From the IMG/VR virus record IMGVR_UViG_3300027563_000005, positions 12,007 through 76,006 of that record: 64,000 nt of DNA; one strand, 5' to 3'. Of the stretch, positions 63,405-63,703 are shown piece by piece. The DNA is from a virus (Duplodnaviria; Caudoviricetes). The translations under genes and the position numbers were made by a program. Within the stretch, counting starts at the first letter, position 1. Each line of letters starts with the position of its first letter. Under the pieces are notes generated by a model. The model was not told the origin of the DNA. It made no database searches and saw only the letters and a list, made by a program, of their open reading frames with translations.

Positions 63405-63594
63405 TCAAAAAAATATTACTGTACGTTTAATGACAAACGTATTTCAAGAAAAAAATGCCTATTTAGCAGCACAAAGCGGATTGTCAGAAATTGAAGTGGC
63501 AGCGCAAATGAAGGAAATGAACGGAACGATATTTTGGATGCTAGAGTCGGTATATGATGCACTAGTTGAAGAAAATTATATCAAAAACGATTGA
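63394..63594 (+). CDS. Hypothetical protein
   Basis: AGGAG RBS before the ATG at 63394. Confidence 0.6.
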   Translation: MSFSQKNITVRLMTNVFQEKNAYLAAQSGLSEIEVAAQMKEMNGTIFWMLESVYDALVEENYIKND

Positions 63595-63625
63595 CTTATA
63601 ATTTAAAGTATTTTATACTTTAAAT
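63591..63625 (+). promoter_or_regulatory. Near-consensus sigma70 promoter with palindromic operator
   Basis: TTGACT, 17 bp, TATACT; ATTTAAAGTA-N5-TACTTTAAAT inverted repeat. Confidence 0.75.
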
Positions 63626-63703
63626 CTGGTAGAGTATAACTACTCCCAGTAGTGTCTTTAAGACACGTCACTACCCAGTCGGATCCGCCTCTGACTGGGT
63701 TTT
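63626..63703 (+). ncRNA. Candidate ~78-nt structured small RNA (three hairpins)
   Basis: Lies between a strong promoter and an intrinsic terminator; no ATG; all three segments fold into stems. Confidence 0.6.
63673..63703 (+). terminator. Intrinsic terminator with UCCGCC loop
   Basis: ACCCAGTCGGA/TCTGACTGGGT 11-bp stem (one GU) followed by a T-run. Confidence 0.75.

Follow-up and report, generated by a model that had tools for sequence, protein, structure and literature searches.

Why would a phage keep a small RNA (sRNA) whose terminator loop is complementary to a motif at the starts of its own replication genes? The question is raised by a 111-base-pair (bp) gap near the end of the stretch of DNA analysed here, the last 64 kb (64,000 nucleotides, nt; hereafter the window) of the 76,006-bp virus record IMGVR_UViG_3300027563_000005 (Caudoviricetes). 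The gap holds a predicted sRNA gene with the terminator loop UCCGCC. Is this gene real? Which parts of it are conserved? And what could the loop be pairing with? The gene recurs with the same loop across a large family of related phages, and we regard it with high confidence as a real, conserved sRNA gene. For its function we propose, with a probability of roughly 0.45, that the invariant loop would pair with GGCGGA in the start regions of a few messenger RNAs (mRNAs) for replication and nucleotide metabolism, which form a small, conserved set.

What does the locus look like? The following elements can be distinguished in the window:

63591-63596, + strand: -35 box TTGACT, overlapping the TGA stop codon of the upstream 66/87-amino-acid (aa) open reading frame (ORF)
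63614-63619, + strand: -10 box TATACT, exactly 17 nt 3' of the -35 box
63624-63703, + strand: predicted sRNA of ~79 nt, its 5' end placed 5-7 nt past the -10 box and its 3' end at the U-run
63626-63649, + strand: hairpin 1, with outer stem CUGG/CCAG, a 2-nt 5' bulge (U-N), inner stem GAGUA/UACUC and loop UAAC
63652-63666, + strand: hairpin 2 (GUGUCU-UUA-AGACAC), an optional hairpin with loop UUA
63673-63703, + strand: intrinsic terminator, an 11-bp GC-rich stem (63673-63683/63690-63700), a hexaloop and a U-run to 63703
63684-63689, + strand: the hexaloop UCCGCC, on the closing pair A63683-U63690

An initial annotation had described a TTGACT-17-TATACT promoter, an ORF-free unit of ~78 nt, two hairpins and a terminator stem at this site, and all of them are there. 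The promoter, a sequence prediction spanning 63591-63619, matches the consensus at 10 of 12 positions, and no ORF of at least 25 aa occurs between 63595 and 63705 on either strand. Folding of 63620-63705 gives a minimum free energy of -35.5 kcal/mol against a shuffle mean of -18.3 (standard deviation 3.5; z = -4.96), none of 200 shuffles being as stable, and the window sRNA scores 77.2 bits (E = 2.6e-14) against the covariance model of the family. Could it be a known RNA? Rfam covariance models gave no family matches over the whole window at gathering thresholds and no match on six other homologous loci. ARAGORN found no transfer RNA (tRNA) or transfer-messenger RNA gene in the window and no cloverleaf at the sRNA stretch, so a tRNA, tmRNA or tRNA-like identity was rejected.

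How widespread is the unit? The 26-nt terminator hairpin is identical in 21 IMG/VR contigs, all syntenic with the window; in the more distant of these the neighbouring proteins are 33-66% identical, and hairpins 1 and 2 differ in sequence and still pair. Nearly all window genes lie on the - strand, and the sRNA gene closes a module of the opposite orientation:

62334-63594, + strand: module of an SLT/lysozyme-like protein (62334-62882) and three small ORFs

This module diverges from nrdJ, the ribonucleotide reductase gene, and extends to 63594. From the other side a - strand gene converges on it, ending at 63706, and the gap between them holds the sRNA unit. The order nrdJ, SLT-lysozyme module, sRNA is kept in all relatives. 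Homologous loci were fetched by means of the neighbouring SLT protein, and so independently of the RNA, in two sets; the searches matched more than 588 and more than 579 contigs, and the best 80 were taken in each set. The covariance model finds the sRNA in 71 of the 80 loci of the first set and in 66 of the 80 of the second. What about the remaining 23? Twenty have at most about 1.5 kb of sequence past the SLT gene, and for the other three (L340, L352 and L391) loss of the sRNA was rejected, since the RNA was found farther downstream on each parent contig. All 140 protein-ascertained IMG/VR relatives with enough flanking sequence have the sRNA. The family is abundant by the RNA pattern as well, which occurs in at least 117 contigs, and the gene is single-copy in all six large genomes searched. 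At least 83 distinct homologue sequences were collected, of 60-94 nt, in two-hairpin and three-hairpin forms; the range of lengths arises by loss or gain of a whole hairpin.

The promoter travels with the RNA. TTGAC[TA]-17-TAnnnT is found in 78 of the 83 distinct loci, with a spacer of 17 nt in all 78 matches and a -10 box of TACAAT, TATACT or TATAAT in 75 of them; the remaining five loci have -10-like boxes only. The unit keeps its promoter at distances of 0.45 to ~3.5 kb from the SLT gene. Does the sRNA occur outside these phages? A search of window DNA against cultured phages gave no similarity match. Among 185,579 species genomes a pattern search returned 93 stretches, of which the covariance model accepts two (59.3 and 56.8 bits). 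These copies (L114 and L121) lie, with their promoter, on contigs of 37% guanine-plus-cytosine (GC) content that were binned into a Bacteroidia and a Saccharibacteria metagenome-assembled genome, and they are most likely mis-binned phage DNA. Three 26-bit matches in Paracoccaceae were rejected as GC-rich (59-60%) and devoid of promoter and U-run (their ORFs were left unchecked), and the rest of the 93 as chance matches in GC-rich DNA. With L114 and L121 the only real copies among the 93, a host-encoded or prophage copy was rejected too.

Do the stems covary while the loop stays fixed, as the initial annotation had suggested checking? They do. The alignment comprises 83 distinct sequences, fitted to the covariance model, with representatives picked by a regular expression that contains the loop; the controls were shuffles and slid partners, not R-scape. 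Pair cells are paired in 94.5% of cases, compared with 76.5% in shuffles (0/500 reach the observed value) and 35-50% with the partners slid, and two-sided changes occur at 18 of 25 pairs (353 cells). Smaller, earlier alignments gave the same picture. The two helices of hairpin 1 are 98.8% and 98.6% paired, with two-sided changes at five of eight pairs around a nearly invariant motif, GGU-N-GAG...CUCC; the terminator stem is 99.1% paired, with two-sided changes at seven of 11 pairs. The helix of hairpin 2 is 74.6% paired in the model alignment and is missing from the 60-70-nt two-hairpin forms. As for hairpin 1, its apical loop, UAAC in the window, is C-rich in several lineages (L223, L339, L386), where it reads CACCACCAUG or AUCCCACA; the C-rich version may be a second, lineage-specific seed.

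How firm is the invariance of the terminator loop? Because the alignment representatives were chosen by a loop-containing pattern, it rests on the protein-ascertained loci, and in every homologue ascertained in this way the UCCGCC loop is identical. The closing pair is A-U in 83 of 83 aligned sequences. An invariant core of 11 nt was considered, rejected and narrowed to 8 nt, as distant relatives show compensated changes at the outer pairs; the core is thus AUCCGCCU, the hexaloop with its A-U closing pair, unchanged in all homologues. Over 89 distinct contexts the outer pairs read GG...CU in 64, GG...CC in 21, GA...UU in two and AG...CU in two, that is, the pair next to AUCCGCCU changes from G-C to A-U in 2/89 and the following pair is G-U, G-C or A-U. 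Loops in which the central base differs were looked for directly; the two matches obtained are both chance ones in GC-rich contigs, and such loops were rejected.

What, then, does the loop face? Copies of AGGCGGA had been noticed near the starts of dnaB, two small genes, dnaE and nrdJ, and five of them do lie just before these starts; a related site at the portal start is given after them:

62157-62163, - strand: AGGCGGA in the nrdJ leader, 18 nt before the ATG at 62138
133-139, - strand: AGGCGGA 1 nt before the start of dnaE (Pol III alpha, Pfam-confirmed), directly after a TTGACT-17-TAGAAT promoter-like site
3371-3377, - strand: AGGCGGA 5 nt before the GTG start of the gene for a DnaB-type helicase, inside the 3' end of the upstream ORF
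3885-3891, - strand: AGGCGGA 6 nt before the start of a 67-aa gene (p67; PHROG 5189, function unknown)
4110-4116, - strand: AGGCGGA 3 nt before a 43-aa ORF (ATG at 4106-4104)
35484-35491: AGAGGCGG, 9 nt before the portal start

Orthologous starts were compared in up to six genomes, two of which (G005 and G007) share 75% nucleotide identity over their alignable half. The nrdJ motif is kept in 46 of 47 distinct leader variants and in all six genomes, with differing flanks, 13-20 nt before the start. The hexamer GGCGGA is kept in four of five genomes at dnaE and in five of six at p67; at dnaB it is found in four of six, with GGCGG in all six. In G007 and G013 the motif context of the 43-aa ORF directly precedes the p67 orthologue. 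Two further genes, p122A and p122B, keep GGCGGA at their starts in five of five genomes. At p122B the first G of the motif falls on the third codon position of the upstream ORF and stays G while the encoded residue varies (K/M/T/T/E), which points to selection at the nucleotide level. Taking five genes together, 25 of 27 orthologue-by-lineage cells retain the central C while the flanks diverge. The portal match reported in the initial annotation is present in the window and is not conserved among relatives, so the AGAGGCGG site was rejected as a target; sites at a 78-aa gene, a 100-aa gene and a DUF6065 gene were rejected on the same ground.

Two of these starts have features of their own. The nrdJ leader contains a small conserved hairpin (CCGC-AAG-GCGG) with the motif as its 3' arm. 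The 5' arm (CCGC; UCCGU in G012 and G013) pairs with GCGG(A), masks the motif and repeats in cis part of the loop sequence of the sRNA. Conservation of this leader (window 62139-62200, - strand) extends far beyond the motif (…ACCGCAAGGCGGAGAAAAGG…). At p122A tandem copies occur in two lineages. In the complete relative G005 (73906-73918; L105:13906-13918) an extended -10 box (TGATACAAT) is followed by a tandem GGCGGA-GGCGGA, which immediately precedes the start of a 122-aa protein whose function is unknown, and in the G013 orthologue of the 122-aa gene the two copies are separated by a 1-nt spacer.

Is the motif concentrated at starts beyond what composition would give? With gene starts taken from a simple ORF caller in five genomes, 27 of 330 copies of GGCGGA lie within 0-12 nt of a candidate start, the highest count among all 30 permutations of its composition; the best permutation that neither overlaps GGCGGA nor contains GGAGG has seven. 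For comparison, GGTGGA is near starts in 9 of 293 copies, a rate three-fold lower than that of GGCGGA, and the canonical GGAGGA in 33 of 182. Non-coding DNA is enriched too: G005 has 10 copies where 1.4 are expected, and G007 has 6 where the expectation is 1.0 (Markov null; each count includes the sRNA's own copy). The distance from GGCGGA to the start codon peaks at 5-6 nt (13/27), as in a Shine-Dalgarno (SD) sequence: 17 of the 27 near-start copies lie at 5-8 nt (mode 5) and eight only 1-3 nt away. Most other genes of these phages have AAGGAG, GAAAGG or GGAGG as ribosome-binding sites. The anti-SD core of the ribosome is CCUCC; set against it by inspection, the central C of GGCGGA faces U and the complementarity is interrupted.

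How might such an RNA act? Here we infer its expression, its pairing and the sign of its effect. The sRNA would be transcribed from its near-consensus promoter by host RNA polymerase carrying the primary sigma factor, transcription would stop at the unit's own intrinsic terminator, and the functional element of the RNA would be the apical hexaloop UCCGCC on the A-U closing pair. This loop could form five G-C pairs and one A-U pair with GGCGGA, presumably without an RNA chaperone, as in the actinobacterial 6C sRNA discussed below. The targets would be mRNAs with GGCGGA at or just upstream of the ribosome-binding position, namely nrdJ, dnaE and the DnaB-type helicase gene, together with several small genes from the replication module and from the small-gene + strand module, the latter assumed to be early. 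In this way the phage would address its genes for replication and for nucleotide supply jointly, the most plausible means being repression through blocked ribosome-binding sites. At nrdJ the sRNA might compete with or replace the cis mask (UCCGU or CCGC) of the leader hairpin.

A further feature of the scheme is its possible privacy. The central C of GGCGGA would mismatch the anti-SD core and the central G of the loop would mismatch ordinary GGAGG sites, and because of these two mismatches loop and motif would form a private SD/anti-SD code. The whole replication regulon could then be switched post-transcriptionally, with genes that carry ordinary SD sites left untouched. A precedent among proteins is RegA of phage T4, a repressor that reads a short motif at the starts of many early and replication genes; here an RNA would read the motif by base pairing. 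In its broadest form, which we put forward tentatively and with less confidence than the pairing itself, the idea is that freshwater actinophages of a lineage abundant worldwide mark their replication and nucleotide-supply genes with a private GGCGGA, and that a single sRNA supplies the matching private anti-SD as an RNA counterpart of RegA.

What speaks against this pairing? A number of observations do, the first of which concerns the count of the motif itself. AGGCGGA occurs 21 times in the window where 3.4 copies are expected; every copy is on the - strand, and the sRNA loop itself accounts for one. In G000 (the window plus 12 kb upstream) 18 copies lie inside called coding sequences, 16 of them in the frame xxA-GGC-GGA, and synonymous shuffling leaves 7.3. 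The window-wide excess is mostly a Gly-Gly codon-pair effect and was rejected as evidence for targets: GGC-GGA is an over-used codon pair inside ORFs, which may reflect avoidance of internal GGAGG, and sites that overlap upstream ORFs, such as that of dnaB, may be conserved through the codon pair. The hexamer behaves in the same way in G000: its coding sequences contain 48 copies of GGCGGA (43 in frame), whereas synonymous shuffling yields 17.7 and, in 100 shuffles, never more than 31. Among upstream words AGGCGGA holds rank 3 of 5354 in G005; in G007 its rank is 1458 of 4684. The complementarity between loop and motif spans just 6-7 bp, and duplex energies do not single it out: start regions at or below -10 kcal/mol number 66 and 71 for the reversed seed and 48 and 57 for the real one, so genome-wide energies were rejected as evidence for targets. 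At dnaE the fifth genome, G013, has GGTGGA, and at p67 G008 has a canonical GAAGGAG instead; given these swaps and the SD-like spacing, GGCGGA may be a tolerated weak SD. The compared genomes are moreover related, so that motif counts are not independent events, and because the loop is invariant no compensatory change of loop and target can be observed. Other words over-represented upstream in G005 and G007 are ATGTCAG/TGTCAG, TGCTATA, GTATAAT (extended -10-like) and ACGAAAGG/CGAAAGG (long and SD-like).

The enrichment at starts that the initial annotation had expected therefore holds against composition-matched words and in non-coding DNA; it does not hold as a window-wide excess, nor for the 7-mer in G007. 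Its replication regulon fares similarly. The motif is kept in diverged lineages at nrdJ, dnaE, dnaB and the small-gene starts, the portal site is not conserved, the duplex energies do not separate the loop from its reversed control and two sites have drifted.

If the sRNA is real, could its loop serve someone else? The alternative that survives best, unlikely as it seems to us on balance, is that the partner is a host mRNA, another host RNA or an RNA-binding protein, that GGCGGA is a weak SD which avoids GGAGG in overlapping ORFs, and that its complementarity to the loop is a coincidence. The SD-like spacing, the exchange for GAAGGAG at p67, the strong preference for GGC-GGA as a codon pair, the undistinctive generic duplex energies and the lack of enrichment of the exact 7-mer in G007 would all be expected under it. 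An invariant loop beside neighbouring proteins of 33-66% identity would also fit a conserved host partner or protein equally well. Such a coincidence does not explain why GGCGGA is more frequent near starts than the 29 other words with its composition, or why its rate there is three times that of GGTGGA. Nor does it account for the central C, which is kept in all but two of the 27 cells, including at a third codon position, and for which an ordinary SD has no need.

A simpler view would make the element a mere terminator between convergent units, bidirectional in some lineages, with the other hairpins stabilising the 3' end of the SLT-module mRNA. Its site between the module end at 63594 and the end of the converging gene at 63706 suits such a role, as does the GC-rich stem followed by a U-run, and in several variants the stem is preceded by an A-run and followed by a T-run, an arrangement also found in bidirectional terminators. 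A terminator needs neither an invariant loop nor a conserved hairpin 1, however, and it does not call for a near-consensus promoter with a fixed 17-nt spacer directly before hairpin 1 in 78 of 83 loci, kept with the unit whether the SLT gene is 0.45 or ~3.5 kb away. We consider this view improbable.

Less probable still, with only a slight chance of being correct, is that AGGCGGA/TCCGCCT acts as DNA, as an operator for a phage or host protein near promoters, the loop copy being an operator, packaging or recombination site. At dnaE, p122A and a 68-aa gene, -10 boxes do lie 2-15 nt ahead of GGCGGA. The conserved dnaB, p67 and p122B sites, in contrast, are internal to operons, lack a promoter and immediately precede start codons. 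Every gene-proximal copy has the sense orientation, the copy in the sRNA coincides precisely with the apical loop of a stem that covaries, and the locus varies in position within contigs and so does not mark a genome end.

The 3' tail of 16S ribosomal RNA carries a GGAUC...CCUC pattern, and that the loop region mimics this tail as a decoy for a host factor or nuclease acting on it, such as an abortive-infection toxin, is hardly credible: the likeness was seen by eye alone (GGAUC in 85 of 89 distinct contexts), the two Gs of GGAUC are stem positions that vary with compensation (AG...CU, GA...UU) so that only AUCCGCCU is fixed, and the fixed loop G breaks the anti-SD core.

Are there known RNAs that work like the proposed pairing of UCCGCC with GGCGGA? 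Exposed C/U-rich loops that pair with G-rich leaders are found in Helicobacter RepG, where the loop belongs to the terminator, and in staphylococcal RNAIII and the Rsa RNAs. These are chromosomal, regulate host functions and have other sequences and folds (the Rfam scans by which homology was judged were negative). DicF and the Pas sRNAs of Escherichia coli are enterobacterial, mostly Hfq-dependent and mainly directed at host genes. The phage RNA has in common with DicF and Pas that it is a trans-acting sRNA encoded by a mobile element, with a promoter and terminator of its own (here predicted); it differs from them in belonging to a family of lytic-type actinophages (~113-116 kb) and in being aimed, as it seems, at phage replication genes.

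The closest parallel is the 6C sRNA of Actinobacteria, the C-rich loops of which bind targets including dnaB without Hfq or ProQ, as reported by Mai et al. 2019 (PMC6486639). As 6C is portrayed there, both are short hairpin RNAs that set a C-rich apical loop against G-rich mRNA sites by a few G-C pairs (for the phage RNA, pairing deduced from sequence), and dnaB is among the validated targets of the one and the proposed targets of the other. The host phylum is probably the same, going by whiB (see below), and some lineages of the phage RNA have C-rich hairpin-1 loops, CCCAC or CCACC. Is the phage RNA then a 6C? Membership of that family was rejected: Rfam models including 6C returned nothing for three variants of the sRNA, even with the threshold relaxed to E = 10. 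The RNA is, moreover, phage-encoded with proposed targets among the phage's own genes; its key loop, UCCGCC, has a fixed internal G and is located in the terminator; and the window copy has one C-rich loop, unlike 6C with its two or more hairpin loops with C-runs.

Has the element been seen before? Our literature search found no description of this RNA, nor of regulatory RNAs in phages of freshwater actinobacteria, hosts that are abundant and hard to culture, although the supplements of PMC10690425 could hold it. That study, as outlined in its main text, clustered intergenic regions of IMG/VR into 8,495 new structured-RNA candidates, 1,241 of them with intrinsic terminators (PMC10690425). Its main text does not mention the element, with no occurrence of 'ribonucleotide reductase', 'Actinobacteria' or 'promoter', and the candidate lists lie in the supplements; the phage sRNA may well be among these anonymous candidates. 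The passages of PMC10690425 that bear on such elements assign them no function, target motif or loop invariance.

The sRNA family is a new and cleanly defined phage non-coding RNA and a lineage marker, and it would remain so even if the regulon hypothesis fails. To our knowledge, very few regulatory RNAs have been described from lytic phages. The hypothesis itself is clear and falsifiable: it involves a single loop and a single motif of 6 nt each, and a defined set of genes. If it is true, these phages would regulate their own replication by a chaperone-independent sRNA and would provide a natural orthogonal SD/anti-SD pair, of relevance to phage biology, to the mechanisms of actinobacterial sRNAs and to the design of compact regulatory parts.

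Which host do these phages infect? A whiB gene is present in all three complete relatives, and a 601-aa, probably structural, protein matches Streptomyces phages only (113 records, 22-26% identity). The host is probably an actinobacterium because of these two observations; whiB serves as an actinophage marker in two studies (PMC10202952; PMC10914622). With a phage GC content of 36-39%, the host would probably be a low-GC freshwater actinobacterium. Going by complete relatives of 113-116 kb, the record represents roughly two-thirds of the genome. The complete relative G005 encodes eight tRNAs (Ile-TAT, Asp, Arg-CCG, Leu-TAA, Asn, Lys, Arg-TCT and Met), none of them in the part covered by the window.

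Two other regions of the window may be mentioned. A single ORF of 3,958 aa (14762-26638, - strand) combines a phage minor-tail domain of the tape-measure type with an OmpA-family domain. At 41086-43863 (- strand) four paralogous genes adjoin one another, two encoding DUF6065 proteins that lie between two for 2OG-Fe(II) oxygenases.

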